64,000 bases of DNA from positions 704,001 through 768,000 of the forward strand of contig CAVZZO010000001.1 of NCBI GenBank assembly GCA_963779755.1. Reading direction: 5' to 3'. A program made the position numbers and the translations under genes. Shown here one piece after another: positions 5,137 through 50,487 of this stretch. How positions within the stretch are numbered: the first letter of the stretch is position 1; each line of letters opens with the position of its first letter. The notes under the pieces were generated by a model. That model searched no databases. It was given only the letters and a program-made list of their open reading frames with translations, and was not told the DNA's origin. The stretch is from an uncultured Gemmatimonadales bacterium. Its GTDB lineage: Bacteria; Gemmatimonadota; Gemmatimonadetes; Gemmatimonadales; GWC2-71-9.

Positions 5137-6939
5137 TGATCCACAGATTACGCTGCGGACCCTGACGGCAGCCCTGGTACCTGACGGCCGGCGCAGGTCC
5201 GTTTGTGATCCGCAGATTGCGCAGATTGCGCAGATTTTGCTCCAATGCTTGCAGCACTCCGCAGAGCGTTGCCGGGCGACGTACAACGAACAACTGGTTC
5301 TTCTTTTTGTGGGTGCCTGGGCCGGCATCGGAGCACGGCCCGCGCCGGGAACCATCTGCGTAATCTGCGTAATCTGTGGATCAACAATTCGGATCTGTCC
5401 CGATCACCGAGCCCGAGGGACCGGCTGTGGAGCCCTGCCGGCAGGTGCCTGGGCCGGCATCGGAGCACGGCCCGCGCCGGGAACCATCTGCGTAATCTGC
5501 GGATCAACAATTCGGATCTGTCCCGATCACCGAGCCCGAGGGACCGGCTGTGGAGCCCTGCCGGCAGCCTTGGCACAGGGGGGTCAGCGCAGGTCCGTTT
5601 ATGTGATCCGCAGATTGCGCAGATTACGCAGATTTTGTTCCAATGCTTGCAGCACTCCGCAGAGCGTTGCCGGGCGACGTACAACGAACAACCGGTTCTT
5701 CTTTTTGTGGGCGCCTGGGCCGGCATCGGAGCGCCACCCGGTCTGGGAAGCCATCCGTGTAATCTGTGTAATCTGTGGATCAACAATTCGGATCTGTCCC
5801 GATCACGGAGCCCGAGGGACCGGCTGTGGAGCCCTGCCGGCAGCCTTGGCACAGGGGGGTCAGCGCAGGTCCGTTTATGTGATCCGCAGATTACGCAGAT
5901 TACGCAGATTTTGTTCCAATGCTTGCAGCACTCCGCAGAGCGTTGCCGGGCGACGTACAACGAACAACCGGTTCTTCTTTTTGTGGGCGCCTGGGCCGGC
6001 ATCGGAGCGCCACCCGGTCTGGGAAGCCATCCGTGTAATCTGTGTAATCTGTGGATCAACAATTCGGATCTGTCCCGATCACGGAGCCCGAGGGACCGGC
6101 CGTGGAGCCCTGCCGGCAGCCCTGGTACAGCGGGGTCACCGCAGGTCCGTTGATGTGATCCGCAGATTACGCAGATTTTGTTCCAATGCTTGCAGCACTC
6201 CGCAGAGCGTTGCCGGGCGACGTACAACGAACAACCGGTTCTTCTTTTTGTGGGTGCCTGGGCTGCATCGGAGCGCCACCCGGTCAGGGAAGCGATCCGT
6301 GTAATCTGTGTAATCTGTGGATCAACAATTCGGATCTGTCCCGATCACGGAACTCGAGGGACCGGCCGTGGAGCCCTGCGGGCAGCCCTGGTACAGCGGG
6401 GTCACCGCAGGTCCGTTTATGTGATCCGCAGATTACGCAGATTGTGCTCCAATGCTTGCAGCACTCCGCAGAGCGTTGCCGGGCGACGTACAACGAACAA
6501 CCGGTTCTTCTTTTTGTGGGTGCCTGGGCTGCATCGGAGCGCCACCCGGTCAGGGAAGCGATCCGTGTAATCTGTGTAATCTGTGGATCAACAATTCGGA
6601 TCTGTCCCGATCACGGAACTCGAGGGACCGGCCGTGGAGCCCTGCGGGCAGCCCTGGTACAGGGGGGTCACCGCAGGTCCGTTTATGTGATCCGCAGATT
6701 ACGCAGATTACGCAGATTTTGCTCCAATGCTTGCAGCACTCCGCAGAGCGTTGCCGGGCGACGTACAACGAACAACCGGTTCTTCTTTTTGTGGGTGCCT
6801 GGGCTGCATCGGAGCGCGGCCCGGTCGTTGAATCAATCCTCGTAATCTGCGTAATCTGCGGTTGCACCACACACAACCGACCCTTTCACGGATCCGTGCG
6901 ACCGAGCTCGCGGAGCCGATCTGCGTAATCTGCGGATCA
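5137..6939. repeat. Array B: six tandem units of ~266-276 bp with inverted 9-mer arms
   Basis: Anchor CAATGCTTGCAGCACTCCGCAGAGCG at 5243, 5641, 5917, 6184, 6450, 6725. Confidence 0.95.
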
Positions 6940-7570: not shown

Positions 7571-9238
7571 ATGAGCGCTATCCGCGTCAGGGCTTGCTCC
7601 GGAATTCTCACCGTCGCGCTGCTGCTGGGCCTGAGCGCGTGCACCGATGTGGTGTACCGCGACCGGCTGACCTATAACTCGCCGCCCGATACCTCCAGCG
7701 GCTTTCTGGGATACTTCACCGCGTCCACCAGGCAGACCACCTGCGGCAACTGCCACGTGGGCCAGCAGGCCGACTGGATCCAGACTAAGCACTCCAATGC
7801 CTGGGCCGATCTCCAGGCCAACCCCTCGGCGCAGCCCTTCTGCGAGAATTGTCACTCGGTGAACTCGCGCGGCAATCAGCCGCCCGCCATCGTCGGCTAC
7901 GAGAAGGTGAAGGACGAGGCCTACCACGACGTGCAATGCGAGAGCTGCCACGGGCCCGGATTCGAGCACGTGCAGAATCCCACCACCGTCGCCACCCGGC
8001 CGATCCCCAGTATTCAGGTCTATCCGAACGACGCCCCCGTGAGCGATACCGCGGCGGTGGTCAACAGCAGTTGCGGCGCCTGCCACCAGGGTGCCGGCCC
8101 GTCCCAGAATCACAATTACCTGAAGGAATGGCTCTCCTCGCGCCATGGACAGCTGAATACACACGCGGCACCCAACCCAAGCTGCCAGCCCTGCCACGAA
8201 GCCAAGGGCGCGCTGCTGGCCTTCGGCGTGAACACCGTGTACCAGCAGCTGGGCAGCAGCACCCTGATGCCGCAGAACTGCGTCGTCTGCCACGATCCGC
8301 ACGGGACCGCCAAGGACGCCAACGGGCAGCCGCTGCCGGGGCAGCTCCGCTTCGCCATCAACACGCCGGTGCTGGACCAGAACCTCTGCACCCGCTGCCA
8401 TAACCGGATTCCCCAGCCGTCGGCCGCCAACTTCCGCGGACCGCACGGGACCCAGGGGCCGGTGCTGTTCGGGTCGGCGGGCTACTTCCCGCCGGGAAGC
8501 TCCTACGACACCACGGAGATCCTGACCACCCACGGGTCCACGGCCAATCCCCGGCTGTGCGCCGGGTGCCATGTGAACGAGCTCAACGGGGTGGATGCCG
8601 GGGGCAATCCGACGTCGTTCACCGGCCACACCTTCCATCCGCTTCCCTGCCTGTCGCAGAAGAGCCCGCCGGTGGTGGACACCACCTACTCCAATACCTG
8701 TGCTTACGACGAGCCCAGCCGGTCCTGGGGCGCGTGCACGGCGTCGGGCTGCCACGGGACCGAGGCGGTCGCCGTCCAGCGGCTCACCAGTATCTGGGCC
8801 GAACGGGACGGGTACGTGGATGTGCTATGGAAGGACATGAACGGCAACCAGGCGGTGGATTCCTTCCCGACCGACAGCGGGTACCTGGCCCTGATCAAGC
8901 TGAATGCACCCAACGATCTCGACTTCACCAACGCGCCCTATAATACCATCCTCACACCGGCCAAGGGCGCCCTGTTTAACGCCCAGATGCTGGGCGAGGA
9001 TCTGACCGGCCATCCCGACGGCTCGCACGGGGTCCACAATCCGTTCCTCTACCGGGCCCTGCTGCAGGCGTCCATCGCCGATCTGGAGGCAAACTACAGC
9101 AGCTTCCTGCCGGCGCCGCCGGCCCCGGTCCTGAGCGAAATCCAGAACGCGCTGCGGAGCGGTGCTCTCAAGGTGGCGCCCGCCACGGCGCGGGTGATGA
9201 TGAGCCTGACGCCGGGAGGTCGGGTAGCCTCCCACTGA
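7571..9238 (+). CDS. Multiheme c-type cytochrome lipoprotein (8 CxxCH + 1 CX4CH)
   Basis: Lipobox LSAC; CGNCH, CENCH, CESCH, CGACH, CQPCH, CVVCH, CTRCH, CAGCH, CTASGCH; C-terminal DGSHGVHNP. Confidence 0.9.
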   Translation: MSAIRVRACSGILTVALLLGLSACTDVVYRDRLTYNSPPDTSSGFLGYFTASTRQTTCGNCHVGQQADWIQTKHSNAWADLQANPSAQPFCENCHSVNSRGNQPPAIVGYEKVKDEAYHDVQCESCHGPGFEHVQNPTTVATRPIPSIQVYPNDAPVSDTAAVVNSSCGACHQGAGPSQNHNYLKEWLSSRHGQLNTHAAPNPSCQPCHEAKGALLAFGVNTVYQQLGSSTLMPQNCVVCHDPHGTAKDANGQPLPGQLRFAINTPVLDQNLCTRCHNRIPQPSAANFRGPHGTQGPVLFGSAGYFPPGSSYDTTEILTTHGSTANPRLCAGCHVNELNGVDAGGNPTSFTGHTFHPLPCLSQKSPPVVDTTYSNTCAYDEPSRSWGACTASGCHGTEAVAVQRLTSIWAERDGYVDVLWKDMNGNQAVDSFPTDSGYLALIKLNAPNDLDFTNAPYNTILTPAKGALFNAQMLGEDLTGHPDGSHGVHNPFLYRALLQASIADLEANYSSFLPAPPAPVLSEIQNALRSGALKVAPATARVMMSLTPGGRVASH

Positions 9239-9249
9239 GGGGCATCGCC

Positions 9250-9980
9250 GTGCGTCACTGGATCGCGTTCGCTCTCCTGGCGGGCGCCGTCACTGCCGCG
9301 AAACCGCGGCCGGTGGCGGCGCCCCCCCGTTTCCATCGACGGCCATCGCGCCGCCCCAGGCGGCGCGCGACACCTTTCCGCATGCCCGGCACACCAGGTT
9401 CTCCTGCCTGACCTGCCACCTGAGCACGTCGCAGTCCATGCTCACCTTCAAACGGCCCGACGGGTGCCGGACCTGCCATCACGCCGACCCGGCCCGGGCG
9501 GAATGCTCCCACTGCCACCAGCCGGACAGCCTGCCGGCGACGATCGAGCGGCACCTTACCATCGCCGCGGCGGGCCGGCCGCCGCATGACCGGGTGGTAG
9601 CCTTCCCCCACGCGCGCCACACCCGCCTGGGCTGCACCACCTGCCACGGCGAGGCGGAGAGCCTGGCGCCGGTCGACTCCGCCGCCACCTGTCAGGGCTG
9701 CCACGACCAGCACCACCGGGCGGGACGGGCCTGCGCCACCTGTCATGCCAACCCATCCATTCTCTCGATCCACGCGCCGCCCGTGCGGGTCCACGTCGCC
9801 TGCGACGCGTGCCACGCCACCGTGGCCATCGCCGCCCTGACCCCGACCCGTTCGTTCTGTCTGGTCTGCCACCGGACCCAAGCGGATCACCAACCGGGCG
9901 GGGAGTGCACCGAGTGCCACTTCCAGGCCAGTCCGGAGGAGTATCGCGCCCGTCTGTTGCGGCGGAGGAAGACCGGATGA
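9250..9980 (+). CDS. Nonaheme c-type cytochrome with an apparent 1-nt frameshift near the 5' end
   Basis: Signal-like MRHWIAFALLAGAV from GTG 9250 is in a different frame from the heme domain (FPHARH..CLTCH upstream of ATG 9438, plus 8 more CxxCH). Confidence 0.8.
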
Positions 9981-11461
9981 GAACGGGCCTCCGGCTGGCG
10001 CTCCTCGCGCTCCTCGCGACACCCGCGGCGGCTACGGCGCAACAGTATCTGCTCCGGCTCGACAGCCGCATGCAGCGGGTGGACTTCCGCGGCCTGGTGA
10101 AGGACAGCATCCCCGCCTCCCAGGTGGTGACCGGCGCCAACGGCCGCCCCGAAACCACTGATGGCTACGCCGTCACCTGCGGCGGCCAGTCCACCTGCAT
10201 CTTCTACCGCCCCGGGCCGGTGCTCCGGGGAGCGCCGATGGTGAACGGCGCCGACCTCACCGTCTGGGGCTTCGGCCTTCCCGGCCTGCGCCTGCGGGCC
10301 AACGGGCGGGTGGGCTTCGACCTGGGGAACAGCGAGGTCTGGCCCGGGACAAATCCGGCGCTGCAGGTGAACGAGGCCTATATCGAGTACGCTCCCGATC
10401 GCCTGGTCGCCCGCCTGGGCCGCCAGATCGAACACACGCGCCTCGGCTCCTACGGTTACGACGGCCCGCGCCTGGCCTGGGGGTTCCCCTCCCTGGGGCT
10501 CACCGTCATCGGCTATGGCGGGCTCGGGCTGGCGCGCGCGGTGGCCCTGCCGGTGACCAGCGACGCGCTCAATCCGCTGGATGAGTTTCAGCCCCGGCGG
10601 CGCCAGCTGCTCGCCGCCGGGGCCGTCGAATGGCAGCGCCCCATGGTGGACGCCCGGCTGGATTACGAGCGGGAGGTGGACCGGGAGACGCGCAACTTCG
10701 TCTCCGAACGGATGGCGCTCTCGGCCACCTTCCGTCCCTACGGGGGATGGAGCCTCTCCGGCGGCGCGGATTACGACCTGGCGTGGGGCTGGTGGGGCAG
10801 CGCCGACCTGACCGTCCGCTACGGCGGCACCCGCTACGGCGGGGCGGCGGGGGTGCGCCGCTATCGCCCCTATTTCGATCTCTGGACCCTGTGGGGCGCG
10901 TTCAGTCCGCTGCCCTATTCGGCCGTCAACGGGTCCGCCTGGGTGTCGCCCATGCAGGGCCTCACTCTGCATGCCTGGGGGGAGCGCTACTGGTACCCGG
11001 ACGCCGAGGCGGATACCCCGCTCCTCACGGTCGAGACCCGGGGTTGGCGCTGGAACGCCGGCGGCAGCTACGCCGTTTCGCCCAGCGTCAGCGTGGATGC
11101 CGGCTATCAGGCGGCGTACGGCCCTGGCGCGTCATCCCGCGGGGTGGACGGCAGTCTGGACTACCGGGTGAACCCCCGGCTCACGCTCACGGCGGAGGGC
11201 GGTTACCAGATCCGGCCGCTGGAGTACCGGCTGGAAGACCCGGCCCTGACCTGGTACGGGCTGGCGGTGAATTTCCGGCCTACCGAACGGCTGCGGCTGG
11301 ACCTGCGGGCCACCCGGTACCAGGAGAATCGCCGCCGCCCCGATGCCGGGGGAATTGACTGGTCGAATACCCGTTTCAGCCTGAGCTTCGCCTGGCTGCT
11401 GGGCTCGAGCATTGACCGCCTTCCCCTGCCGCCGGCGGTTCGCCGGGAGGGCCGGCGATGA
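9977..11461 (+). CDS. Putative outer-membrane beta-barrel (porin) of a porin-cytochrome conduit
   Basis: ATGA overlap with the upstream stop; signal peptide; alternating aromatic/Gly-rich beta-strand pattern; no CxxCH; lies between multiheme genes. Confidence 0.75.
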   Translation: MRTGLRLALLALLATPAAATAQQYLLRLDSRMQRVDFRGLVKDSIPASQVVTGANGRPETTDGYAVTCGGQSTCIFYRPGPVLRGAPMVNGADLTVWGFGLPGLRLRANGRVGFDLGNSEVWPGTNPALQVNEAYIEYAPDRLVARLGRQIEHTRLGSYGYDGPRLAWGFPSLGLTVIGYGGLGLARAVALPVTSDALNPLDEFQPRRRQLLAAGAVEWQRPMVDARLDYEREVDRETRNFVSERMALSATFRPYGGWSLSGGADYDLAWGWWGSADLTVRYGGTRYGGAAGVRRYRPYFDLWTLWGAFSPLPYSAVNGSAWVSPMQGLTLHAWGERYWYPDAEADTPLLTVETRGWRWNAGGSYAVSPSVSVDAGYQAAYGPGASSRGVDGSLDYRVNPRLTLTAEGGYQIRPLEYRLEDPALTWYGLAVNFRPTERLRLDLRATRYQENRRRPDAGGIDWSNTRFSLSFAWLLGSSIDRLPLPPAVRREGRR

Positions 11462-12885
11462 CCGTCACCCGTTTCTCCCTCATTGCTGGCCTCGGGCTCA
11501 TGCTCGCCGGCTTCGGCGGGCGGGCCGTCCGTCGGCAGCAGGACACGTTCGATCACGCCCGGCATCGCAAGGTGTTCCCGGAATGCGAGGGCTGCCATGC
11601 CGGCATCCGGCAGGCCGGACGCCCGGTATTCCCGGCGCCGGAGGTGTGCGCCAGATGTCATGATGGGACGGTGGAACGGAAGGTGGACTACACTCCACCG
11701 GAGCCGTCCATCCGGACCAACCTCCGCTTCCGTCACGCGGAGCACGACGCGCGGTCCGGCCGGCGGCTGCCGGGCGATTCCATTCTTGCCTGCAGCCAGT
11801 GCCACATCCCCCAGGGCGCGCCCTGGCTCACCGTCCGGCGCACTAATCCGCGCAACTGTCTCGACTGCCACGGAGTGACCGCGCCGCATCTTTCCGCTCC
11901 GGATACCGCCTGCGCCACCTGCCATCTCCCGCTGCCTCAGGCCGCGGCCTGGTCTCCGGAGCGGATTGCCCGACTGCCCCATCCGCCCTCACACGACCAG
12001 GCGAACTTCCCGAGCGCCGAGGGGCATGGCGCGCTGGCCCGGCAGAGTGAGCGGAACTGCGCCGTCTGCCACGCGCGCGATTTCTGTATCCGGTGCCATG
12101 TCAACGCGCCCGAGGTGAAGGCCATCCAGGCGCTGGCGCCCGATCCCCGCTCCCTGGCCATCAAGGTCGCGCTGGAGGCTCCCCAGTCGCACCGTGAAGC
12201 GGGCTGGCTGGACGAACATGGCGGGGTGGCGAAGCGCGAGGCGGCGAAGAGCTGCGCCTTCTGCCACACGCGGCAGAGCTGCATGGTCTGCCATCGGACC
12301 CGGCCGGCGCTGGCGCTGTCGCTGCCCGACAGCGGAGCGGGACGCGGGATCGGGGCGCGCATCCCGCGGAAGGCGGGGGGATACCACGGACCTGACTGGG
12401 TGGATCAGCATCCGGGGCCAGCCCGGTCGGCGCCCGAAACCTGCGAGACCTGCCACGCGCGGACGGAGTGCCTGGAGTGCCACCGTCCCAATCCCGGCGC
12501 GGCGGGGAACTATCACCCGGCGGGCTTCCTGACCCGGCATCCCGCGCTGGCCTTTAACCGGCAGGTGGACTGCACCGACTGCCACAGCCAGAGCCAGTTC
12601 TGCGTCACCTGCCACCAGGAGGCCGGCCTGGTGTCAACGGCTCCGCTGCGGCAGGGCTTCCATGACGCCAACGGCGCTTTTGCGCTCAACCACGGAGTGG
12701 CGGCACGGCAGAATCTCGAGTCCTGCGTCTCCTGTCATGCCGAGCGCGACTGCCTGACCTGCCATTCGGCGCAGGGCGGACGCCGCTTCAATCCCCACGG
12801 GCCGGGCTTCGACCCGGACCGCTTGCGGCAGCGCAATCCTCAGATGTGCGCCGGGTGTCACGGGAGAAATATTCCGACCAGGTGA
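11458..12885 (+). CDS. Hexadecaheme c-type cytochrome
   Basis: 16 CxxCH motifs counted (CEGCH to CAGCH); FxHxxH distal-ligand motifs; N-terminal hydrophobic signal. Confidence 0.9.
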   Translation: MTVTRFSLIAGLGLMLAGFGGRAVRRQQDTFDHARHRKVFPECEGCHAGIRQAGRPVFPAPEVCARCHDGTVERKVDYTPPEPSIRTNLRFRHAEHDARSGRRLPGDSILACSQCHIPQGAPWLTVRRTNPRNCLDCHGVTAPHLSAPDTACATCHLPLPQAAAWSPERIARLPHPPSHDQANFPSAEGHGALARQSERNCAVCHARDFCIRCHVNAPEVKAIQALAPDPRSLAIKVALEAPQSHREAGWLDEHGGVAKREAAKSCAFCHTRQSCMVCHRTRPALALSLPDSGAGRGIGARIPRKAGGYHGPDWVDQHPGPARSAPETCETCHARTECLECHRPNPGAAGNYHPAGFLTRHPALAFNRQVDCTDCHSQSQFCVTCHQEAGLVSTAPLRQGFHDANGAFALNHGVAARQNLESCVSCHAERDCLTCHSAQGGRRFNPHGPGFDPDRLRQRNPQMCAGCHGRNIPTR

Positions 12886-13015: not shown

Positions 13016-14457
13016 AATCCACAGATTTCACAGATTGCGCAGATTGGCTCGGTGCGCTTGCGGCGCTTCGCCAAGGCCTGCCAGTATCCCCAGAAGAAAC
13101 TCGTTGTCTTTGTTGGGAGCGCAGGGCAACGCTCCATACGCCTGGTTCCCGGGCGTCGTGGCGCGGGGAAGGCTACCGGATCACGGGGGAACCGCAGATT
13201 ACGCAGATGTACGCAGATTTGGCTCCGTTCGCCTGCAGCGATCCGCCAAGCCTCGCCTCACGCCAACAAAACAGAAGATTCGTTGTTTGCTGGGAGCGCA
13301 GGCAAGGCTCCATGGAGCTGCGCCGACAGACGAGGCAATCTGCGTACATCTGCGTTCAATCTGCGTAATCTGTGTTCCCCCTCCGGGAACCCAGCCGTGC
13401 AAGGAGCCCGGGACGTAACCGACGCTTCGCCCTGGTTGGCCGACCTGGCCGATTGATTGAGACCGCAGATTACGCAGATTACGCAGATTTGGCTCCGTTC
13501 GCCTGCAGCGCTCCGCCAAGCCTCGCCTCACGCCAACAAAACAGAAGATTCGTTGTTTGCTGGGAGCGCGGGCAACGCTCCATGGAGCTGCGCCGGCAGA
13601 CGAGGCAATCTGCGTACATCTGCGTTCAATCTGCGTAATCTGTGTTCCCCCTCCGGGAACCCAGCCGTGCAAGGAGCCCGGGACGTAACCGACGCTTCGC
13701 CCTGGTTGGCCGACCTGGCCGATTGATTGAGTCCACAGATTTCACAGATTACGCAGTTTTGGCTCGGTTTGCCTGCAGCGATCCGCCAGGCCTCACCTCA
13801 CGCCAACAAAACAGAAGATTCGTTGTTTGCTGGGAGCGCAGGCAACGCCCCATGGAGCTGCGCCGGCAGACGAGGCAATCTGCGTACATCTGCGTTCAAT
13901 CTGCGTAATCTGTGTTCCCCCTCCGGGAACCCAGCCGTGCAAGGAGCCCGGGACGTAACCGACGCTTCGCCCTGGTTGGCCGACCTGGCCGATTGATTGA
14001 GTCCACAGATTTCACAGATTACGCAGTTTTGGCTCGGTTTGCCTCAAGCGATCCGCCAAGCCTCACCTCACGCCAACAAAACAGAAGATTCGTTGTTTGC
14101 TGGGAGCGCAGGCAACGCCCCATGGAGCTGCGCCGACAGACAGGGCAATCTGTGTACATCTGCGTTCAATCTGCGTAATCTGTGTTCCCCCTCCGGGAAC
14201 CCAGCCGTGCAAGGAGCCCGAGACGTAACCGACGCTTCGCCCTGGTTGGCCGACCTGGCCGATTGATTGAGTCCACAGATTTCACAGATTACGCAGTTTT
14301 GGCTCGGTTTGCCTGCAGCGATCCGCCAAGCCTCGCCTCACGCCAACAAAACAGAAGATTCGTTGTTTGCTGGGAGCGCAGGCAACGCCCCATGGAGCTG
14401 CGCCGGCAGACGAGGCAATCTGCGTACATCTGCGTTCAATCTGCGTAATCTGCGGTT
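13016..14457. repeat. Array C: five 270-bp units plus one degenerate leading unit
   Basis: Anchor CGCCAACAAAACAGAAGATT at 13261, 13531, 13801, 14071, 14341 (exact period 270). Confidence 0.95.
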
Positions 14458-14518
14458 CCCTCTTGGTAGCCGCCGCGGCCCAAGGGCCCGAGGTCGCGAT
14501 GGCCCCGGCGCCCCGGGC

Positions 14519-15496
14519 TCAGTGGTCCTCTGGTGTCTCTTTCCTGGTGCCTGCCTCCTTCTTGCCGGCCGCCCTGGCGGGCCCTTCCCCGGCCGTCATG
14601 GACGTATCGGGGCCCTCTTTCGATATCAGGCGGCCGCCTCCCGCCATCCCCAGCAGCGACGGCACATTGAGCGAGTCGGCCAGGCCCGACGGCACCACCA
14701 TGAGCGAGCCCCGCTTGACGATACTCTCGTACAGCATGTTCATCGCCCGCAGCTGCATGGCGTCGGGGTGATTGCGGTAGGAGTCGGCCGCGTCCACGAA
14801 CTTGTGGGCGATTTCGGTCTCGGCGGTACCCAGGATGATGCGCGCCTGCCGTTCCCGTTCCGCCTGGGCCTGGCGGGACATGGCGTCTTCCAGCCCGGCG
14901 GGGATGATGACATCCCGGATCTCCACCGACTGCACCTGGATGCCCCAGGTCGCCATCTTCTCCTCCAGGGCCAGCTTGAGCCCGTGGCCCAGCTCGACCC
15001 GCGACTGGATCAGCTCCGCCAGGTCGTGCTTGCCGATGGCGTCCCGCAGCTGCGTCTGCGCCGAGAGGATGACCGCCTCGTCGTAGTCCTGTACCTCCAG
15101 GGCGGCGCGCTCGGCGTCTCGGACGATCCAGAACGCAATGGCATCCACGTTCACCGGCACCGTGTCGCGGGTGAGGCACGATTCGGCTCCGAACGCGGCG
15201 GTCCGGATCCGCTGGTCGATGGTGTAGGCCACCCGGTCCAGGATGGGGATGATGACGAAGTAGCCGGGCCCGCGGAGGCCCCGGTAACTGCCCAGCCGCA
15301 GGAGGACGGCCTTCTCCCACTGGTCGGTGTACTTGATGGCGGAGGCGATCAGCACCCCCAGCGCCAGGCCGGCCAGGCCGGCCAGCGGCGGCGCCACGCC
15401 GGCAAGGAACAGCGCGCCGGCCAGACCGGCCCCGACGATCAGCCCTGCTGAGAGCGCGGCGAAGGAGTATCGCGTGTCATTCGGCCTGTGTCTCAT
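14519..15496 (-). CDS. SPFH/slipin (stomatin-like) membrane protein
   Basis: AVLLRLG..GPG..IIPILD, LTRDTVPVNVDA, AMSRQAQAERERQA; start at ATG 15496 after GAGG. Confidence 0.9.
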   Translation of the reverse strand: MRHRPNDTRYSFAALSAGLIVGAGLAGALFLAGVAPPLAGLAGLALGVLIASAIKYTDQWEKAVLLRLGSYRGLRGPGYFVIIPILDRVAYTIDQRIRTAAFGAESCLTRDTVPVNVDAIAFWIVRDAERAALEVQDYDEAVILSAQTQLRDAIGKHDLAELIQSRVELGHGLKLALEEKMATWGIQVQSVEIRDVIIPAGLEDAMSRQAQAERERQARIILGTAETEIAHKFVDAADSYRNHPDAMQLRAMNMLYESIVKRGSLMVVPSGLADSLNVPSLLGMAGGGRLISKEGPDTSMTAGEGPARAAGKKEAGTRKETPEDH

Positions 15497-15547
15497 GACC
15501 CTCACCTCGCAAAAGAAAAAGCTGGTAGCGCGGTTGCCACCGGTGCT

Positions 15548-16837
15548 TCATCGTGTCCGGACCGGGCGTACGTCCTCATGCCGCGGCCGGGTGCTTCGCG
15601 GCCGGACCATCCGGGCCAGCGGTTCCTGCTTCAGGTACGGACTGCGGACGCTGCCCAGCTCGATGGGGAGCGCCACCTTCACCAGCACGGTCAGGACGAA
15701 CATGCCCATCGCCCAGATGCCGGCCGTGACGCTCAGCTCCACCCAGGTCGGCCGGTACTCGACCATCTCGCCCAGCGGGGAGGGGATGAATCCGGGGATC
15801 ACCAGGCCCATGCCCTTTTCGATCCAGATGGCGACGAAGAGCATGGCACAGGCCAGCATCAGCAGGTAGGTGTTGCGCCTGATTGCATGCACCATGAGCG
15901 AACCCGTCGCCAGCACGTTCATCCCGATCGCCGTCCAGATCCACGGCACCAGGGCGTGGTGGCCCCGCAGGCCGAAGAAGAGATAGACGGCGCTGGTGCC
16001 GTGTTCCGTGGGCCAGTAGAACTCGTAGAACAACTCCGAGAACAGCATGATGAGGTTGATCTGGGCCGTCACCGTGGTGATCAGCGCCAGCTTGGTAAAG
16101 GCCCGGTCGGCCACCGGGTACTCGGTGTTCTTCCGCACCACGTAGAGCATCAGGATCATGAACGCCGGGCCCGCGGTGAAGGCGGAAGCCAGGAAGCGCG
16201 GCCCCAGCAGCCCGCTGTTCCAGAACGGCCGCGCCGGCAGCCCGGCGAGCAGGAATGCCGTCACCAGGTGGATGCTCACCGCCCACATGACCGAGATGTA
16301 CATGAAGGGCAGGTATTTCCGTTTGGGCGGCGGGGTGCCCTTGTAGCGGTTGTAGAGGATGTAGAACGGGATGGCCAGGTTCAGCGCCAGGTAGCCGTTC
16401 AGCACCAGCACGTCCCAGGAGAGAAGCGAGCGGGGCCAGTTGAGGTACCCCAGCCCGGGAATGAGATGCCAGAACCGCTGGGGGCCGCCAAGATCGACCG
16501 TCACGAATCCCAGGCACATCACCAGCGCCGCCACCGCGACCCCTTCGGCCAGCAGCACCGCCTTGCCGAAGTCCACGTCCTCCAGGATGTAGGCCGGCAG
16601 CACCAGCATCATGGCGGCCGCCGCCAGCCCCACCAGGAAGGTGAAGTTCGAGATGTAGAGTCCCCAGCTCACATGGTCGCTCATCCCGGTGACGCCGAGG
16701 CCGAAGCGCACCTGCTGGGAATAGGCGTAGGCGCCCAGCAGCATGATCGCCGTCAGGCTGCCCATCCACAGGTGGTAGCGGCGGCCCCCGGAGGTGGCCG
16801 ACCGCAGCGCGGTACGCAGGAAGGCTCCCAGATGCAC
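15548..16837 (-). CDS. NrfD/PsrC-family quinone-interacting membrane subunit
   Basis: GLGVTGMSDHVSWGLYISNF, DLGGPQRF; about 10 TM helices. Confidence 0.9.
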   Translation of the reverse strand: MHLGAFLRTALRSATSGGRRYHLWMGSLTAIMLLGAYAYSQQVRFGLGVTGMSDHVSWGLYISNFTFLVGLAAAAMMLVLPAYILEDVDFGKAVLLAEGVAVAALVMCLGFVTVDLGGPQRFWHLIPGLGYLNWPRSLLSWDVLVLNGYLALNLAIPFYILYNRYKGTPPPKRKYLPFMYISVMWAVSIHLVTAFLLAGLPARPFWNSGLLGPRFLASAFTAGPAFMILMLYVVRKNTEYPVADRAFTKLALITTVTAQINLIMLFSELFYEFYWPTEHGTSAVYLFFGLRGHHALVPWIWTAIGMNVLATGSLMVHAIRRNTYLLMLACAMLFVAIWIEKGMGLVIPGFIPSPLGEMVEYRPTWVELSVTAGIWAMGMFVLTVLVKVALPIELGSVRSPYLKQEPLARMVRPRSTRPRHEDVRPVRTR

Positions 16838-16844
16838 GGTTGCC

Positions 16845-17822
16845 TCAGTCGGTGAAGTACCAGAATCGCGGATCCGTCTGCAGGTCTTCCTTCAGACGGA
16901 ACACGTGCTTGTTGGCCAGCACCCAGCGGATCTCGGAATCCGGGTCCAGCAGGTTGCCGAAGACCCGAGCCCCGGTGGGACAGGCCTCGGCACAGGCCGG
17001 CAGCCGGCCCAGGCGGGTCCGGTGGATGCAGAAGGTGCACTTCTCCACCACCCCGCGCCGGCGCGCCCGGTTACCCAGGTAGTGCTGGTTGGGGTTCAGC
17101 TCCGCCGCGGGCACCTCGGGGTCGCTCCAGTTGAAGCGGCGCGCCCAGTAAGGGCAGGCGGCCATGCAGTAACGGCACCCGATGCACCAGTTGTAGTCGA
17201 TGACCACGATGCCGTCCGGCTCCTGCCAGGTGGCCCCGACGGGGCAGACCCGGGTGCAGGGAGGATCGCCGCACTGGAAGCACTGGGTCCCCAGATAGAA
17301 GTGGCCTTCGGCCGGCACCTCGTGCTGGAAGGTCGCGTCGGCCTCGGCGAAATCCACCTCGCCGTCTTCCATCTCGAAGATGCGGATGTACTGCGTCGCC
17401 GCCCGCCGGTCGAGGTTGTTCTCGTTGATGCAGGCCTGGACGCAGTTCCGGAACCCCTGGCACTTCGAGATGTTGAAGGCGTAGCCGAAGATCACCCCCG
17501 GCTGCGCGGCGGTGGAATGGATGGCCACGTCCTCGCCGCGCTCCAGCTTCGCCAGCCGCTCCAGCCGGGCGATGGTCTCCGCCCGTTCCTCCTCCGTCAT
17601 GAACCGGTAGTTGCCCTTGATGTACTCCCGCCATTTGAGCAGCCGGATCTCGCGCTCCTTGGGCGTCTCCGCGCTCAACGGCGTGCAGGCATTGAGCGCC
17701 GCGGCGCCGGCCACCGCCCCGGCGACCATCATCCCCACCGCTGCGCGCCGGTCCACCCGCTTCTGCAGCAGGGTCGCGTTTTCCTGGGCCTCCGGGCTCT
17801 GGCGGTCGCGATCGTTGCTCAT
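16845..17822 (-). CDS. NrfC/DsrO-like 4Fe-4S protein with Tat-like signal
   Basis: DRRAAV N-terminus; CFQCGDPPC, CIGCRYCMAACP, KCTFC, CAEACP; first cluster motif degenerate (CQGFRNCVQAC). Confidence 0.9.
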   Translation of the reverse strand: MSNDRDRQSPEAQENATLLQKRVDRRAAVGMMVAGAVAGAAALNACTPLSAETPKEREIRLLKWREYIKGNYRFMTEEERAETIARLERLAKLERGEDVAIHSTAAQPGVIFGYAFNISKCQGFRNCVQACINENNLDRRAATQYIRIFEMEDGEVDFAEADATFQHEVPAEGHFYLGTQCFQCGDPPCTRVCPVGATWQEPDGIVVIDYNWCIGCRYCMAACPYWARRFNWSDPEVPAAELNPNQHYLGNRARRRGVVEKCTFCIHRTRLGRLPACAEACPTGARVFGNLLDPDSEIRWVLANKHVFRLKEDLQTDPRFWYFTD

Positions 17823-18529
17823 GGCTGGCTCGTGGTCGGAGTTCTGGCGATCCGCGGCGCGCGGAACGGGATCCGCGGCTGAAGCGCGGGCCGGTGCGGG
17901 TCATGGCAATCCGGGCAGGCCATCACCACCCGCCGCCCCTGCCAGCCGTCCAGCCGTTTCCCGTGCGCGCCGTTGGCCCACGCCGTGGCCTGGGGGATGT
18001 GGCACTGGGCGCAGAGCTGGTAGCTCTCATCCAGGCTGACCCGCTTGCCATTGAGCAGGACCAGCGTCCCCACGTCCTCCGGCGCATGGCAGGTGGAGCA
18101 GAGCGCCCCGGTCCGGCTGGGGTGCACCGGCTGGATATTCTGGTGCGCGTCGGCGACCCGCCTGGCCTGCATGACCAGCTTCCGGCCCTGGTGGCAGGAG
18201 GTACAGGGATACTGGCTCAGCGCGGCGGAACGGTTGCGTAGCGCGATGGACAGATTGATCTGGCCGAACTGGCGCGCCTGCCCGGCCTCTGCCTCGGTGG
18301 TCCGGCGGGCCACTTCGAACGGCTGGCCGCCCGGTCCCGTCCATCCTTCCACCGCTATCGCCTCCACCGTCCCCAGCACCCCCGGCTCCCGCGCCGCATT
18401 GCGGGCGCGGGTGGCGGAATCGAGCGGCGCCATCATCTCGGCCGCCTGCTCGCTCCGCGCCAGGGAGCCGTTCCGGCACCCGACGACGATCCCCGCCGCC
18501 AGCAACAAGAGACCGATTCCGCGGGTCAC
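17819..18529 (-). CDS. Tetraheme c-type cytochrome, probable lipoprotein
   Basis: Lipobox VVGC; CTSCH, CSTCH, CAQCH, CPDCH. Confidence 0.85.
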   Translation of the reverse strand: MTRGIGLLLLAAGIVVGCRNGSLARSEQAAEMMAPLDSATRARNAAREPGVLGTVEAIAVEGWTGPGGQPFEVARRTTEAEAGQARQFGQINLSIALRNRSAALSQYPCTSCHQGRKLVMQARRVADAHQNIQPVHPSRTGALCSTCHAPEDVGTLVLLNGKRVSLDESYQLCAQCHIPQATAWANGAHGKRLDGWQGRRVVMACPDCHDPHRPALQPRIPFRAPRIARTPTTSQP

Positions 18530-19344
18530 GGGGCGGCTCCGGTGCTGTCAGCCGGAGTCCACGGCTGGTGCGCGAATGCCTGGGTTTCCCCGCCCGCCTG
18601 TACGTGGCATTGCCGGCAATCGGCCCGGTCGGGATGGGTGGTGCGGACCTCGGCTACCGCCGCGGGCCCCGAGTGGCAGGCCAGGCAGTTCTCCCGGAAC
18701 TGGAGATCGTGCGGGATGGGGGGCGGCGCCTGGTCCCGGGTCAGCGCCGGCAGGGTGGTCCAGACCGTCGTCGGCCAGGTGTAGGACGCCTCCGGCCGGG
18801 GCGCACCGCCGGCGGGGCCGTGGCAGAGATGACAGCGGTCGCTGGGACCGGCGTCGGGGGAGGCGAAGCCCATGACGCGGTCCTCTCCGAGATGGCATTG
18901 CAGGCACATGGTGCGCTCGGGATGGGGCGTCACCGGCGCATAGGCGGCGAAGCGGCGGGAGTAGCCGCCCCGGGCGTGACAGGCGCCGCAGGAGCTCGAG
19001 CGGTACTCGTCGGCGGTAAGGCCGTGGGGAATGCGGGGCGGCGCGCCCTCGTAGGCCCGGAGAAAATGGAATGTCCGCAGGTCGCGCGGGTGCGCCGTGC
19101 GCTGGCGCGGGTCGGCCGGCTCGATGGCCAGCATCGCGGGACTGGTCCGGAAGACCTGGGCCTCGCTGGCGATGGGTTCCTCCGGGACGGCGAGCAGTGG
19201 TACCGCTGGGGCCGGCGCCCGCTCGACCCGGGCGGCATAGGCCCGGCGGACCGCCGCCACCGTTGCCGCCGCCGCCGTGGCCAGGGACGCGACCAGAAGC
19301 GCGCTCATGAGGAGGACCGCGGGCCGCGGGCCGGTGGGGTTCAC
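18526..19344 (-). CDS. NapB-like cytochrome with duplicated domain (5 CxxCH)
   Basis: Two APPxIPH motifs; CGACH, CLQCH, CHLCH, CLACH, CRQCH; GTGA overlap with the upstream stop. Confidence 0.8.
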   Translation of the reverse strand: MNPTGPRPAVLLMSALLVASLATAAAATVAAVRRAYAARVERAPAPAVPLLAVPEEPIASEAQVFRTSPAMLAIEPADPRQRTAHPRDLRTFHFLRAYEGAPPRIPHGLTADEYRSSSCGACHARGGYSRRFAAYAPVTPHPERTMCLQCHLGEDRVMGFASPDAGPSDRCHLCHGPAGGAPRPEASYTWPTTVWTTLPALTRDQAPPPIPHDLQFRENCLACHSGPAAVAEVRTTHPDRADCRQCHVQAGGETQAFAHQPWTPADSTGAAP

Positions 19345-21656
19345 GGTGCCGGCGTTCCCGCGGGCAGCCGCTCCACGCGCACGGCGCACTTGCTGCCGTC
19401 CGGCTCCCCCGACAGCGGGCAGGCCGCATCGAGCATGAGACGCTTGACCGGCAGGTTCTCGTCGAAGTCCGGCGCGAACAGGTGGCCCACCGGCGGCTGC
19501 GACCGATAGTCGATACGCGCCTCCATCACCAGCGATCCCCGGCGGCTCACCACACGGACCATCTCCCGGTTGCGGATGCCGAGGCGCCGCGCGTCTTCCC
19601 GATTGATCTCCACGTAGGCGTGCGGCAGCGCCCGGTGCAGTGCCGGGATCCGCTGGGTGAGTGTCCCCGTGCCCTGATGCTCGAGCACCGCGCCGGTGGT
19701 GAGCCAGAACGGGTAGGCATGATCAGGAGCTTCTGCCGGCGGCTCATAGGGGCGCAGCCAGATCCAGGCCCGGTGGTCCGGGTGGCCGTAGAAGTCGTAC
19801 TCCCCCTTGCCGGCCTCTGCGGCGGGATCGTGGGCCGTGCTGTAGCGCCACTGGACTCCCCGATCGGTGGGGTAGGGCCAGTACGGCCACTGCACGCCCG
19901 GCTGGGAGCGCAGCGCGCTCAGGAGCGGGAGCCGGTCGGGAGCCTCGTCGTGGAAGTGGCGGTATTCCTCCCAGATCTGCTCCACGTGGCGGCTGGGGTC
20001 ATAAGGGAAGAGCTTCGCAAAGCCCAGACGACGCGCGACTTCGATCGTGAGCCAGGCGTCGCCCGTGGCATCGCCCGGCGGCCCCACCAGCCGGTCGAAC
20101 TGCTGGATACGGCGTTCGACGTTGGCGTAGAGGCCCTCCCGCTCAAACCAGAGGGCCGCGGGGAGCACCACATCGGCTACGTCGGTGCTCGCCGTGGGAT
20201 AGGCCGCCGAGACCACGAGGAAGCGGTCCGGCCGGGCCGCGGCGCGGCGGTACCGGTCCAGATCCGGCAGGCTCACCATCGGGTCAGTGGACTGGATCCA
20301 GAGCAGGCGGATGTCTCCAGACTCCAGCCGGCGGAACATCCCCAGCACCGGGGCCGCTGGCCGGAGATCGATCCGCTCCAACGGCACGCCCCAGATTTCG
20401 GCGGCGCGGCGGCGGTCGGCCTTGTTCCGTACCGTTCCACGGGGCAGCGCGTCGGTCAGGCTGCCGGCGTCATGCACCGCGCACCCGCCACTAGGCTGTT
20501 CGCTGAGTCCCAGGGCCCCGTTGCCGGGGCTGGCGATCTTGCCCACCAGCAGATGGAGATTGTACAGCGCGTTGTTGGCCCAGGTCCCTCGGATATCCTG
20601 ATTCACGCCTCGGCCCCAGACGGACATCACCCGCCGCAGCGGATCCCCATAGAGCGAGGCCAGCCAGCGGATGTCCGCCACCTGCATGCCGGAGAGGGCC
20701 TGGACCCGCTCGGGCCGGTAGTCCGAGAGGAACGCCACGTAGTCGTCCCACGTGGCGTCGGCCGGCTGCTCCAGGGCCAGGGTGTCGCCGGCGTCCGCTC
20801 CGAAATCGGTGCGCCCGCGCTGGAACGCGACATGCCGGTCGAGAAAGGCGTTGTCGGCCCAGTTGCGGGCGACGATCTCCTGGCAGATCCCATGGGCGAT
20901 GGCCAGCGTGGCGTGCGGCTGGTACAGCAGGACCTGATCGGCGGCGTAGCTGGTGCGGGTGGCGCGGGTGGCGAGACAGACGATCCGGACGGCCGGATCG
21001 CGCCGCTTCCGCTCCAGCATGCGGGAGAACAGCACCGGGTCGGTCTCGGCCAGGTTGATGTCCCAGAGGACGATGACGTCCGCGTGGTCGATGTCCTCGT
21101 AGCAGCCTGGGGCGCCGTCCTGGCCGAAGCTGCTCCGGAGACCGGCGCTGATGCTGCCGGCGTACAGCCGCGAGCTGGTCTCGATGTTGTTCGTACCCAG
21201 GGCCCCTTTGAACAGCTTGGCCGCGACGTAGGCGTCGGGAATGCTCCAACCGGCCGAGCCGTACATCGCGACGCTGTCCTTGCCGTGCTCCCGCACGGTG
21301 TCCCGGATCCGCTGCGCCACCAGGTCCAGCGCCTCGCCCAGCGGGACCGACACCAGGCCTCCTCCGCGCCGCACCATCGCCTGCCGGATCCGGTCGCGGC
21401 CGTAGAGCGCCTCGACGGAGTTGTAGCCTTTGGCGCAGGCGGACCCCTGGCTCACCGGCGAATCCGGATCGCTCCTGACTGCCACCGCGCGGCCGTTCTG
21501 GATCCCCACCAGCAAACCGCACCCCACACCGCACAATTCGCAGGGTGCTCGTTTCCAGGCCGGTCCGAGAACCGGCAAGACAATCCGGGGGGCGACGACT
21601 GCGGCGGAGGCAAGACCGGCGCTCCCGAGAAACGTCCTGCGGGTGACTCGTCTCAT
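19341..21656 (-). CDS. NapA-like molybdopterin oxidoreductase-family protein, atypical active site
   Basis: Tat TRRTFL; CELCGVGC..CAKG Fe-S motif; NapA-like blocks throughout, but SRLYAGS replaces ARHCMAS. Confidence 0.85.
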   Translation of the reverse strand: MRRVTRRTFLGSAGLASAAVVAPRIVLPVLGPAWKRAPCELCGVGCGLLVGIQNGRAVAVRSDPDSPVSQGSACAKGYNSVEALYGRDRIRQAMVRRGGGLVSVPLGEALDLVAQRIRDTVREHGKDSVAMYGSAGWSIPDAYVAAKLFKGALGTNNIETSSRLYAGSISAGLRSSFGQDGAPGCYEDIDHADVIVLWDINLAETDPVLFSRMLERKRRDPAVRIVCLATRATRTSYAADQVLLYQPHATLAIAHGICQEIVARNWADNAFLDRHVAFQRGRTDFGADAGDTLALEQPADATWDDYVAFLSDYRPERVQALSGMQVADIRWLASLYGDPLRRVMSVWGRGVNQDIRGTWANNALYNLHLLVGKIASPGNGALGLSEQPSGGCAVHDAGSLTDALPRGTVRNKADRRRAAEIWGVPLERIDLRPAAPVLGMFRRLESGDIRLLWIQSTDPMVSLPDLDRYRRAAARPDRFLVVSAAYPTASTDVADVVLPAALWFEREGLYANVERRIQQFDRLVGPPGDATGDAWLTIEVARRLGFAKLFPYDPSRHVEQIWEEYRHFHDEAPDRLPLLSALRSQPGVQWPYWPYPTDRGVQWRYSTAHDPAAEAGKGEYDFYGHPDHRAWIWLRPYEPPAEAPDHAYPFWLTTGAVLEHQGTGTLTQRIPALHRALPHAYVEINREDARRLGIRNREMVRVVSRRGSLVMEARIDYRSQPPVGHLFAPDFDENLPVKRLMLDAACPLSGEPDGSKCAVRVERLPAGTPAP

Positions 21657-21764: not shown

Positions 21765-21829
21765 GCCGCAGATTCGCTCCGCCGATGAACGCCGTGCTAC
21801 CAGTCGGCGGTCCGGCGGTGAAACCTGAC

Positions 21830-22630
21830 GGCGGCCCTGGTACAGCGCGGTTGGCTCAGGTCAGTTTATGGAACCGCAGATTACACAGATTACACAGATT
21901 ACGCAGATTGGCTCCGATGCCTGCGGCGCACTCCATGGCGCGTTGCCGGGCGACTCATAGAAAACATTCTGTTCACTTTTTTGGTGGGTGACTGGGTTGG
22001 ATCGGCGTGCCACCCGGGTCTGCGTAATCTGCGGCTACCTCAACGGATCCGTCCTGCTCGCCATGGTCGGCGGACCGGTTGTGGATCCTGACGGCGGCCC
22101 TGGTACAGCGCGGTTGGCTCAGGTCAGTTTATGGAACCGCAGATTACACAGATTACGCAGATTGGCTCCGATGCCTGCGGCGCACTCCATGGCGCGTTGC
22201 CGGGCGACTCATAGAAAACATTCTGTTCTCTTTTTTGGTGGGTGACTGGATTGGATCGGCGCGCGGCCCGGGTCTGCGTAATCTGCGGTTACCTCAACGG
22301 ATCCGTCCTGCTCGCCATGGTCGGCGGACCGGTTGTGGATCCTGACGGCGGCCTTGGTACAGCGCGGTTGGCTCAGGTCAGTTTATGGAACCGCAGATTA
22401 CACAGATTACACAGATTACGCAGATTGGCTCCGATGCCTGCGGCGCACTCCATGGCGCGTTGCCGGGCCGCCACAAAGAACAAGTGTTCTCTCTTTCTTC
22501 TGGGTGAGCGGGGCTAGGATCGGCGCGCCGCCCGCGGCGGAAGTAATCTGCGTACATCTGCGTAATCTGCGGCTAACTCAATCGATCCGTCCTGCTGGCC
22601 GGGGTCCGCCGACCGGCTGCGGACCCCGCC
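21830..22630. repeat. Array D: three units of ~254-263 bp
   Basis: Anchor GGCTCAGGTCAGTTTATGGAACCGCAGATT at 21853, 22116, 22370. Confidence 0.9.
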
Positions 22631-23394: not shown

Positions 23395-24330
23395 CCGGCG
23401 GCCCTGGTACAGCGCGGTTGGCTCAGATCAGTTTATGGAACCGCAGATTACACAGATTACGCAGATTGGCTCCGATGCCTGCGGCACTCCCCGGAGCGTT
23501 GCCCGGGTGACTCATAGAAACTTGTGTTCCTGTTTCGGTGGGTGACTGGATTGGATCGGCGCGCCGCCCGGGCCGGAGGTAATCTGCGTACATCTGCGTA
23601 ATCTGCGGCCGCGGACCGGTTGTGGATCCTGACGGCAACCTTGGTGCTGACGGTTGGCCCAGGTCCGTTTAGTGATCCACAGATTACACAGATTACGCAG
23701 ATTGACTCCGATGCCAGCGGCACTCCATGGCGCGTTGCCGGGCCGCCACAAAGAACAATTGTTCTCTCTTTTTTCTGGGTGAGCGGGGCTAGGATCGGCG
23801 CGCCGCCCGGGCCGGAGGTCATCTGCGTACATCTGCGTAATCTGCGGTTACCTGAACGGATCCGTCCTGCTCGCCATGGTCCGCGGACCGGTTGTGGATC
23901 CCGGCGGCGGCCCTGATACAGCGGGGTTGGCTCAGGTCCGTTTAGTGATCCACAGATTACGCAGATTACGCAGATTGACTCCGATGCCTGCGACACTCCG
24001 TGGAGCGTTGCCGGGCCGCCACAAAGAACAATTGTTCTCTCTTTTTTCTGGGTAGTCGGGGTTAGCATCGGCGCGCCGCCCGTGGCGGAAGTAATCTGCG
24101 TACATCTGCGTAATCTGCGGCTACCTCAGCCGATCCGTCCTGCTCTTTTCATGGTCCTCGGACCGGTCGTGGATCCTGACGGCAACCTTGGTACTGACGG
24201 TTGGCCCAGGTCCGTTTGGTGATCCACAGATTACACAGATTTACGCAGATTTTGCTCCCATGCCTGCAGCGCTCCGTGAAGCGTTGCCGGGCCGTCACAA
24301 AGGGCCGCATTCTTTTCTTTGTTGTTATTA
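23395..24330. repeat. Array E: four units related to array D, the last incomplete
   Basis: CAGATTAC arms near 23444, 23680, 23953 and 24226 with homologous interiors and linkers. Confidence 0.9.
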
Positions 24331-44254: not shown

Positions 44255-44557
44255 TCACGGCAGGGGGAGCCGGTGGGAGAAGAGCCGGAAGGCGTCGGGC
44301 CAGAGGTGGTCCATCATGATCAGCACGAATACCAGGGCGGGGATCAGGGCCCAGGCCAGCCGCCGCTCGTAACGGAGGTGCATGAAGAACATGAGGGCGA
44401 TGGCGGCCTCAATCACGGCCAGCCCCAGCAGCGCCGCCAGCCGCTCGTGGACCGTGAGCCCGGCGTAGGTCAGGGCCACCTCGACCGCCACGATGGCGAT
44501 GAGCGCGATCCAGACGATGATATGGGTGCGGAAGCGCGGCTCGGCGTGTTCGGTCAT
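44255..44557 (-). CDS. Cytochrome c oxidase subunit IV family
   Basis: 3 TM; FFMHLRYE motif; operon context. Confidence 0.85.
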   Translation of the reverse strand: MTEHAEPRFRTHIIVWIALIAIVAVEVALTYAGLTVHERLAALLGLAVIEAAIALMFFMHLRYERRLAWALIPALVFVLIMMDHLWPDAFRLFSHRLPLP

Positions 44558-44572
44558 GGGTGGACTCGTGGT

Positions 44573-44688
44573 TCGAAGTTCAGGTCAGGGTCACAAGGGC
44601 CAGGGTCAAAGGTCGAAAGTCAAAGTCCGGCGCCGGCCAGTTTCTCGCGCCCGGGTTCGACCTTCGACCTTGGACCTTGGTCCTCTGG
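44573..44688. repeat. Inverted heptamer-run element inside the cox operon
   Basis: AGGGTC/AAGGTCG-like run followed by TTCGACC TTCGACC TTGGACC TTGGTCC. Confidence 0.65.
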
Positions 44689-44713
44689 AGCCATGCATGG
44701 GGGCCATTCCTCG

Positions 44714-45358: not shown

Positions 45359-45395
45359 GGGTCCTCCGGAAGAAGGTCGGTCGCTCGCCCGGGGT

Positions 45396-47803: not shown

Positions 47804-47856
47804 GAGCCTGCCCTTTCAGGGAAGAGAGTGCGCCGGCCAGAGGCCGGGCTCGGGAA

Positions 47857-48657: not shown

Positions 48658-48688
48658 CAGTCCTCCTCGTCGCAGAGAACCCAGGCGA

Positions 48689-49578: not shown

Positions 49579-49611
49579 CGTTTGACGTCCCTCGACAGAA
49601 AGTCCGGACTG

Positions 49612-50469: not shown

Positions 50470-50487
50470 CTCAAACCTCCCGGGTGG

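Follow-up and report, generated by a model that had tools for sequence, protein, structure and literature searches.

A clade of NapA-fold proteins in Gemmatimonadales lacks the molybdenum-ligating cysteine and is likely a structural part of an electron-transfer complex

A cysteine ligates molybdenum (Mo) in all five solved structures of NapA, a periplasmic nitrate reductase, and the review describing them places two pterin patches in the E. coli enzyme (Gly213/Asn215/Glu218 and Arg720/Val721/His724/Trp725/His726) and names Arg354, Asp155, Glu156, and Asp355 (D. desulfuricans numbering) as nitrate-funnel residues (PMC13223375). MopB subunits without the cofactor are also known. QrcB is described as having no redox cofactors (PMC13059093), ActB, which is related to ArrA/PsrA-type subunits, as lacking Mo/W-bis-pyranopterin guanine dinucleotide (bisPGD) (PMC10100899), FhcB as a scaffold in which the Cys is replaced by Ser (PMC6926001), and cluster N7 of NuoG as vestigial and off the electron path (PMC10212512). 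A NapA-derived clade without the Cys appears to be new, and we describe it here through a gene in a 64,000-nucleotide stretch of an uncultured Gemmatimonadales bacterium (contig CAVZZO010000001.1, assembly GCA_963779755.1), hereafter the window. Its product, NapA*, likely carries no Mo cofactor and would act as a structural subunit of a membrane electron-transfer complex, no longer reducing nitrate. The MopB lineage table in PMC10100899 gives NapA with Cys only and the main text of that paper does not mention tyrosine; our literature search, which had most subscription journals outside its coverage, found no description of a non-Cys NapA clade. The gene and its relevant sites are as follows.

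19341..21656, minus strand: NapA*, a NapA-fold protein without the Mo-ligand Cys; open frame of 771 amino acids
21627..21644, minus strand: twin-arginine translocation (Tat) motif, residues 5-10, read in the translation; export is predicted from it
21423..21542, minus strand: 4Fe-4S (FS0) motif with Cys39/42/46/74, Lys76, and Tyr78, from the codons
21162..21164, minus strand: Tyr165 (TAC) at the position of the Mo-ligating Cys, from gap-free alignment to NapA structures
21039..21062, minus strand: pterin patch 1 with G199D and H206D; the equivalent of E. coli Gly213 is gone, Asn and Glu are kept
20472..20474, minus strand: His395 replacing the nitrate-funnel Arg (D. desulfuricans Arg354), from alignment
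19671..19691, minus strand: pterin patch 2 with R656A, W661Q, and H662G (equivalents of E. coli Arg720, Trp725, and His726)

Tyr165 aligned without gaps with the Mo-ligand Cys of E. coli 2NYA, C. necator 3ML1, and R. sphaeroides 1OGY, and also with Cys140 of D. desulfuricans (2JIO). A sequence-only reading of this DNA had placed a tyrosine there, and the four structures bear it out. The five motif changes that it listed (SSRLYAGS, DINLAETDP, GRGVNQD, SEQPSG, and TGAVLEHQG) can all be seen at the corresponding sites of the alignment, some of them private to the window copy, and the Tat signal, the 4Fe-4S motif with its Lys, and the full-length frame are intact as it stated. Half of the eight conserved pterin-patch residues are gone in the window copy (Gly, Arg, Trp, and His726), and in the funnel set Arg has become His and Glu has become Gly, both Asp being retained. 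Selenocysteine or other recoding was considered and rejected, the flagged TGA codons being stop codons at gene ends. A promoter scan found nothing exceeding shuffled sequence.

In its fold, NapA* has NapA as its closest relative among four-domain MopB proteins. Pfam detected three molybdopterin oxidoreductase domains (PF04879, PF00384, and PF01568), and the best family and structure matches were all NapA. An AlphaFold2 model built with 128 sequences (predicted local distance difference test score, 89.6) superposed on C. necator NapA 3O5A with a Z score of 52.6 and a root mean square deviation of 1.6 over 723 residues. With the curated NCBIfam NapA models it scored 625.6 bits (cut-off 904) and 612.9 bits (cut-off 930.55), both under the cut-off, a gap that lineage may explain in part.

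The missing residues are a property of many proteins. The best-scoring 120 of 1,486 homologues, 66 to 77% identical, carried Tyr (109), His (5), Phe (5), or Thr (1) at the ligand site, and none carried Cys. This rules out a sequencing error, against which the sequence-only reading had argued from the several coordinated changes. To these 120 database rows, chosen by score and not by trait, we added 25 locus-derived rows grouped by ligand residue, giving 145 non-Cys proteins (139 distinct), and compared them with 42 Cys-type sisters at sites taken from the NapA review (PMC13223375) and mapped via alignments to NapA structures. Cys165, Arg656, His662, Arg395, and Glu181 were found in 42/42 sisters and in 0/145 non-Cys proteins, and Gly199, the equivalent of E. 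coli Gly213, was retained in 4 of the 145. The changes that run through the clade are the Cys loss, G199D, R656x, H662G, and R395H. Among positions invariant in the sisters, 8 of the 19 named cofactor or funnel sites were lost compared to 38 of 344 others (Fisher p 0.0009, with two of the eight losses conservative and the sites not independent). Asp250, Met349, Phe730, and Lys755, to which we ascribe functions toward cofactor or substrate, have likewise been lost in the clade and vary there. The FS0 site shows the opposite pattern: its four Cys are kept in every non-gapped row, Lys76 in 142, and Tyr78 in 139.

The ligand site itself is variable, and the deep branches carry His, Arg, or Ser there. 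An example is found in genomes G136, G169, and G127, which have Arg or Ser there and a deletion of about 33 residues after the funnel loop but keep the four FS0 Cys; the G136/G169 pair has a ratio of nonsynonymous to synonymous substitution rates (dN/dS) of 0.16. The range of residues at the site (Tyr, His, Phe, Arg, and Ser), together with the loop deletion in some members, argues against a new Tyr ligand. The sequence-only reading had offered either a cofactor-less scaffold or relay or an enzyme with new chemistry, and of the two the evidence favors the scaffold, Tyr not being fixed and the loop deletion standing under purifying selection. The window copy is more eroded than the clade at large. 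Its S385/E386 pair and Gln661 are rare in the clade (Gly386 is found in 114/120 and Trp661 in 140/145), and it is without Gln136, Glu484, and Trp661 through multi-base codon changes and has lost Asn738 too. Of the 305 positions that are near-invariant in the clade it departs from 9 (median, 3), which ranks it 136 of 145.

The trees were drawn from a scan of species genomes that confirmed 478 stretches, of which the best 80 loci were used. After 3 loci were added, 12 partial or frameshifted ones dropped, and one more left out, a quick tree of 71 rows placed the non-Cys proteins, including that of the window, in a clade of 27 rows (Shimodaira-Hasegawa-like approximate likelihood ratio test support, 100; stem, 0.38) nested among the Cys-bearing NapAs of Gemmatimonadota. 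The Ser-bearing locus L075 fell apart from this clade in the 71-row tree but was its sister (support 98) in trees of 30 and 37 rows, all three trees being quick and having some long branches. One origin of the Cys loss is the simpler reading because L075 is sister to the clade in the two smaller trees; two independent losses, hinted at by the 71-row tree only, are not claimed. A hidden Markov model search of 50%-identity representatives returned additional non-Cys proteins among its top matches, and these were more eroded. Pairwise dN/dS (NG86; pairs with dS 0.05-1), values that high GC makes rough, had a median of 0.188 in 154 of 300 non-Cys pairs compared to 0.190 in 247 Cys pairs; it was 0.11-0.23 in the ten closest non-Cys pairs and 0.164 for the window copy against its nearest relative. 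The Cys loss is a clade trait, neither a sequencing error nor decay.

We searched 301 genomes of the order, counting as NapA-type a match at E 1e-80 that includes the N-terminal half. Such a gene was present in 30 genomes, non-Cys in 22 and Cys-bearing in 8, and none had both; the ligand-site residue of the 22 was Tyr (17), Arg (2), Phe (1), His (1), or Ser (1). A canonical NapA paralogue that could complement NapA* was sought and rejected, there being none in the window's genome or in the 30 genomes with matches. A narG gene was absent from the window's genome and present in 1 of the 29 others with a NapA-type gene, a non-Cys one, and NrfA had no match above the cut-off in the window's genome. 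That genome does contain a clade II nosZ, an operon elsewhere resembling that of alternative complex III (ACIII), NuoG, and about a dozen multihaem genes. At L119 (G000:C1 248.6-261.5 kb), a FAD/FeS gene and genes for 23- and 19-haem cytochromes adjoin the nos cluster, and genes similar to this FAD/FeS-multihaem set sit just upstream of napA* in other genomes. A second large multihaem cluster, L120 (G000:C3 769-781 kb), has genes with 8, 9, 21, 11, and 16 haems, cytochrome b genes, and a barrel paralogue.

NapD has been linked to insertion of the Mo cofactor (PMC4159696). Using a profile built from Cys loci, we found napD just upstream of napA in 41/43 Cys loci compared to 0/33 non-Cys loci that extend 450 bases or more upstream. 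A genome-wide search gave a match in 0/21 non-Cys genomes of the order, and the window's genome also gave none. A mobA-like gene in that genome scores under the cut-off.

The genes that follow napA* on the same strand, and a convergent cluster beyond them, are listed below.

18526..19389, minus strand: NapB-like pentahaem cytochrome c (5 CXXCH; start uncertain); its Atlas neighbors have PF03892 NapB in 63-95% of members (score 0.94-0.96)
17819..18529, minus strand: tetrahaem cytochrome c (4 CXXCH; Pfam C7/paired CXXCH), likely a lipoprotein from its lipobox-like signal end
16845..17822, minus strand: NrfC/QrcC/DsrO-type protein with four 4Fe-4S clusters (DsrO model 192.7 bits, cut-off 200)
15548..16837, minus strand: NrfD/PsrC/DsrP-type quinone-reactive membrane subunit (PF03916; DsrP model above cut-off)
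14519..15505, minus strand: SPFH/band-7 membrane protein at the operon end (PF01145)
11458..12885, plus strand: 16-haem cytochrome of the convergent cytochrome-barrel cluster, from haem motifs
9809..11461, plus strand: likely outer-membrane beta-barrel (start probably 9977); no Pfam match, and the nearest named Atlas clusters are barrels (0.92-0.93), a lead only
7571..9238, plus strand: 8-haem cytochrome, from haem motifs
about 9251-9980, plus strand: further multihaem gene with an apparent frameshift near 9325

The pentahaem, tetrahaem, NrfC, and NrfD genes also follow napA in the Cys-type sisters. In loci of at least 16 kb (18 non-Cys and 25 Cys, with few independent events behind the counts), the SPFH gene was found in 18/18 non-Cys loci compared to 2/25 Cys loci, and the 16-haem and barrel pair within 10 kb in 17/18 compared to 4/25. 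The presence of the pair or of SPFH in some Cys loci means that the link is older than the Cys loss, and not an exclusive one. L156 (G063:C1), a close Cys-bearing sister in which no napD was found, with SPFH downstream and a cytochrome-barrel cluster directly upstream, is a candidate for the state just before the Cys loss. The close NapA and the close NrfD occurred together in 24 of 25 genomes each, the unmatched NrfD lying at a contig start, and a stand-alone NrfCD orthologue without NapA* was not seen among the close orthologues.

Some observations on these genes stand by themselves. At L154 (G137:C3, 7459-10287), a distant tetrahaem-NrfC-NrfD operon lacks both napA and a pentahaem gene, and several genomes of a single genus carry distant NrfD genes like that one. 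Tandem duplicates of the NrfC-NrfD-SPFH block are present in the non-Cys loci L035, L038, L042, L049, and L051; the window has a single copy. A genome of the same family (L153, G097:C3) has dsrAB above the cut-off beside DsrMKJOP-like genes. In the multihaem gene at about 9251-9980, the signal peptide and the haem motifs are in different frames and a run of seven C lies near 9323-9329; its frameshift is likely a long-read homopolymer error. Intergenic tandem arrays with units of 254-273 bp and a shared short core are found at 5486-6858, 13195-14460, 21803-22468, and 23609-24302 of the window. They resemble repetitive extragenic palindromic (REP) elements, of the 61 copies of their 15-base core in the genome 21 lie within the window, and two of the arrays flank the napA* operon. 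A haem-copper oxidase operon (COX1, COX2, and COX3-type genes and a dihaem cytochrome c) occupies 44255-52221 on the minus strand.

From sequence and genomic context, we would picture the complex as follows. The Tat system would export NapA* with its 4Fe-4S cluster and without Mo-bisPGD. NapA* may then remain attached to the NapB-like pentahaem cytochrome and cap it, aiding its folding or stability, and FS0 would be a dead-end or structural cluster, as N7 is in NuoG. NrfD and NrfC would oxidize quinol, and the electrons would pass via the tetra- and pentahaem cytochromes to a periplasmic multihaem pool instead of to nitrate. The most likely destination would be the neighboring cytochrome-barrel conduit, with NosZ as a further possible one. 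The direction of flow is borrowed from the ancestral Nap and is the weakest step of the scheme.

Several points weigh against a NapA* that has lost its cofactor. The fold is complete and domain IV is whole, by both Pfam and the model superposition, whereas the scaffold FhcB lost domain IV (PMC6926001). Many pterin or nucleotide contacts are retained among the 145 non-Cys proteins (Asn201 in 142, Glu204 in 145, Gln387 in 142, Trp661 in 140, His660 in 106, and Lys76 in 142). About 30 positions were replaced and then nearly fixed in the clade, several of them polar (Asp199, Asp206, Asp354, and His395), and could form a new active site. Cofactor synthesis is encoded: moaA is present in the window's genome and in 29/29 other genomes, and the window's genome also has moaE, a Mod/Wtp-type transporter, and an FdhA-type enzyme. 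With these Moco (Mo-cofactor) genes present, loss of Moco synthesis is ruled out as an explanation. The absence of napD is not clade-specific, as the gene was found in only 1/8 Cys genomes of the order; napD may therefore have been lost first, and its co-loss no longer serves as decisive proof. AioA and IdrA are described as holding Mo without an amino-acid ligand (PMC10100899), and Cys loss alone is thus no proof of Mo loss. As to the surroundings, the neighborhood counts reflect few events, and homologues of the 16-haem gene occur in 159/301 genomes of the order, mostly without NapA*, which means that the conduit does not need the NapA* complex. Finally, for NapA* as the terminal subunit of a wire, the need for a scaffold is less obvious than for QrcB or ActB.

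If the complete fold, the retained contacts, the Moco genes, and the AioA/IdrA precedent are taken together with a long stem branch (0.38) followed by the newly fixed residues, retained FS0, Lys76, and Tyr78, and a dN/dS equal to that of the presumably active sisters, NapA* could be a neofunctionalized enzyme that binds Mo/W-bisPGD without a protein ligand, or a new metal site made from Tyr, His, or Asp, and acts on a substrate other than nitrate. We consider this, the main rival reading, unlikely, since every new polar residue of the pocket varies in some members (Tyr165 in 130, His395 in 131, Asp354 in 135, and Asp199 in 139 of 145), Phe, Arg, and Ser also occur at the ligand site, and pterin-binding Gly, Arg, and His are lost, with loop deletions tolerated under selection. 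The patchiness of the erosion would suit a different reading, in which NapA* does no catalysis and caps the complex as a sensor or regulator while still binding a partial ligand, be it a single pterin dinucleotide, a guanine nucleotide, or an oxyanion. Here Glu204, Arg231, Ser483-Glu484, and Asp533 are near-invariant while Gly199, Asp250, Met349, and Lys755 are lost, and our assignment of such contacts to individual pterins is an assumption. The retained residues may be merely structural, and the window copy is also without Gln136, Glu484, Trp661, and Asn738, which leaves this reading rather improbable.

That NapA* goes on working as a periplasmic nitrate reductase despite its unusual residues is suggested by its best family and structure matches, by an operon that matches the one in the Cys-bearing sisters, and by the lack of narG or another napA in the window's genome. 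We regard it as very improbable, given a Cys that ligates Mo in every solved NapA, the disappearance of that Cys and of the equivalents of funnel Arg354 and Glu156, Arg720, and His726 from 145/145 proteins, and a score under the NapA model cut-off. Least credible is a decaying gene or a sequencing artefact, an idea to which the 9/305 departures of the window copy and a probable homopolymer frameshift nearby, which hints at a long-read assembly, lend something. The full frame, the want of Cys among the best 120 homologues, the dN/dS values of the closest pairs and of the window copy (0.11-0.23 and 0.164), and the multi-base codon changes make it extremely improbable; close relatives share the loss under purifying selection, so that the decay envisaged by the sequence-only reading as its own refutation does not apply. 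A NapA* that lacks the Mo cofactor and has become a structural subunit is, in our judgment, the probable answer.

For gene surveys the clade matters because 22 of the 30 NapA-type genes in the sampled order are without the Mo Cys and would inflate counts of nitrate reduction. As only 1/22 non-Cys genomes has narG, the majority would count as nitrate respirers in error. Nitrogen-cycle surveys assign napA by similarity; one of marine Gemmatimonadota did so for NapAB using DIAMOND (PMC11316326). Source names among the best 120 homologues include Gemmatimonadales and 'nitrate reductase NapA', and JGI names many clade proteins 'nitrate reductase NapA' or 'nitrate reductase (cytochrome)', labels that, as had been anticipated from the sequence, are probably wrong. 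In addition, the clade provides what would be a recent Mo-bisPGD loss on a new MopB branch whose near sisters keep the Cys within the same operon, and the origin and retention of cofactor-less subunits such as QrcB and ActB become directly testable with it. Chances seem evenly balanced that this is the separate birth, still in progress, of a Qrc/ACIII-like complex, in which a nap operon would have given up its Mo centre and become a quinol-to-multihaem outlet for extracellular or N2O respiration, now the majority 'napA' form in Gemmatimonadales, for which catalytic sisters still alive and intermediates of several grades can be compared. A bolder version would give NapA*, as a MopB enzyme, a novel metal site that does without Cys.

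Among described systems, NapA(B) (E. coli 2NYA, C. necator 3ML1/3O5A, and D. desulfuricans 2NAP/2JIO) shares with NapA* the fold, the Tat motif, FS0 with its Lys and Tyr, and a NapB-like gene downstream. NapA* differs in lacking the Mo-ligand Cys, the funnel Arg and Glu, and the pterin Gly, Arg, and His, in having no napD that we could find, and in a quinol link made of NrfC/NrfD and the tetrahaem cytochrome, which is absent from the four nap operon types set out in PMC13223375. Closer still is the direct sister group, the Cys-bearing napD-napA-pentahaem-tetrahaem-nrfC-nrfD operon of other Gemmatimonadota, Acidobacteriota (including Sulfidibacter corallicola), Rhodothermota, and Desulfobacterota, with the same gene order and 51-62% identity. 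These sisters keep all catalytic and pterin residues (42/42), usually have napD, rarely have SPFH or the cytochrome-barrel genes, and are predicted to reduce nitrate. In AioA and IdrA, too, the Mo position is without an amino-acid ligand (PMC10100899), but they carry Mo-bisPGD and a 3Fe-4S cluster, whereas NapA* has four FS0 Cys and is only 20-22% identical to them. The C-terminal region of NuoG/Nqo3 (N7) and FhcB are Mo-free MopB folds (PMC10212512, PMC6926001), as proposed for NapA*, but they are cytoplasmic and derive from formate or formylmethanofuran dehydrogenases, and FhcB is without FS0 and domain IV, both kept in NapA*. A GMP (guanosine monophosphate) ligand in FhcB was considered but is absent from the main text of PMC6926001 and was dropped. 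Parallels in architecture are QrcABCD (with QrcB) and ACIII (with ActB), which likewise combine a cofactor-less MopB subunit with multihaem, NrfC-type FeS, and NrfD-type subunits (PMC13059093, PMC10100899), the Mo-free status of NapA* being putative. Unlike QrcB and ActB, NapA* keeps the FS0 ligands and nests within NapA, and the window's genome has an ACIII-like operon of its own. With the QrcB model NF041783, NapA* scored 63.7 bits (cut-off 440) compared to 625.6 with NapA, which means that its loss was separate from that of QrcB and ActB. The best reading is that NapA* is like QrcB, ActB, and NuoG in kind but derived from NapA.

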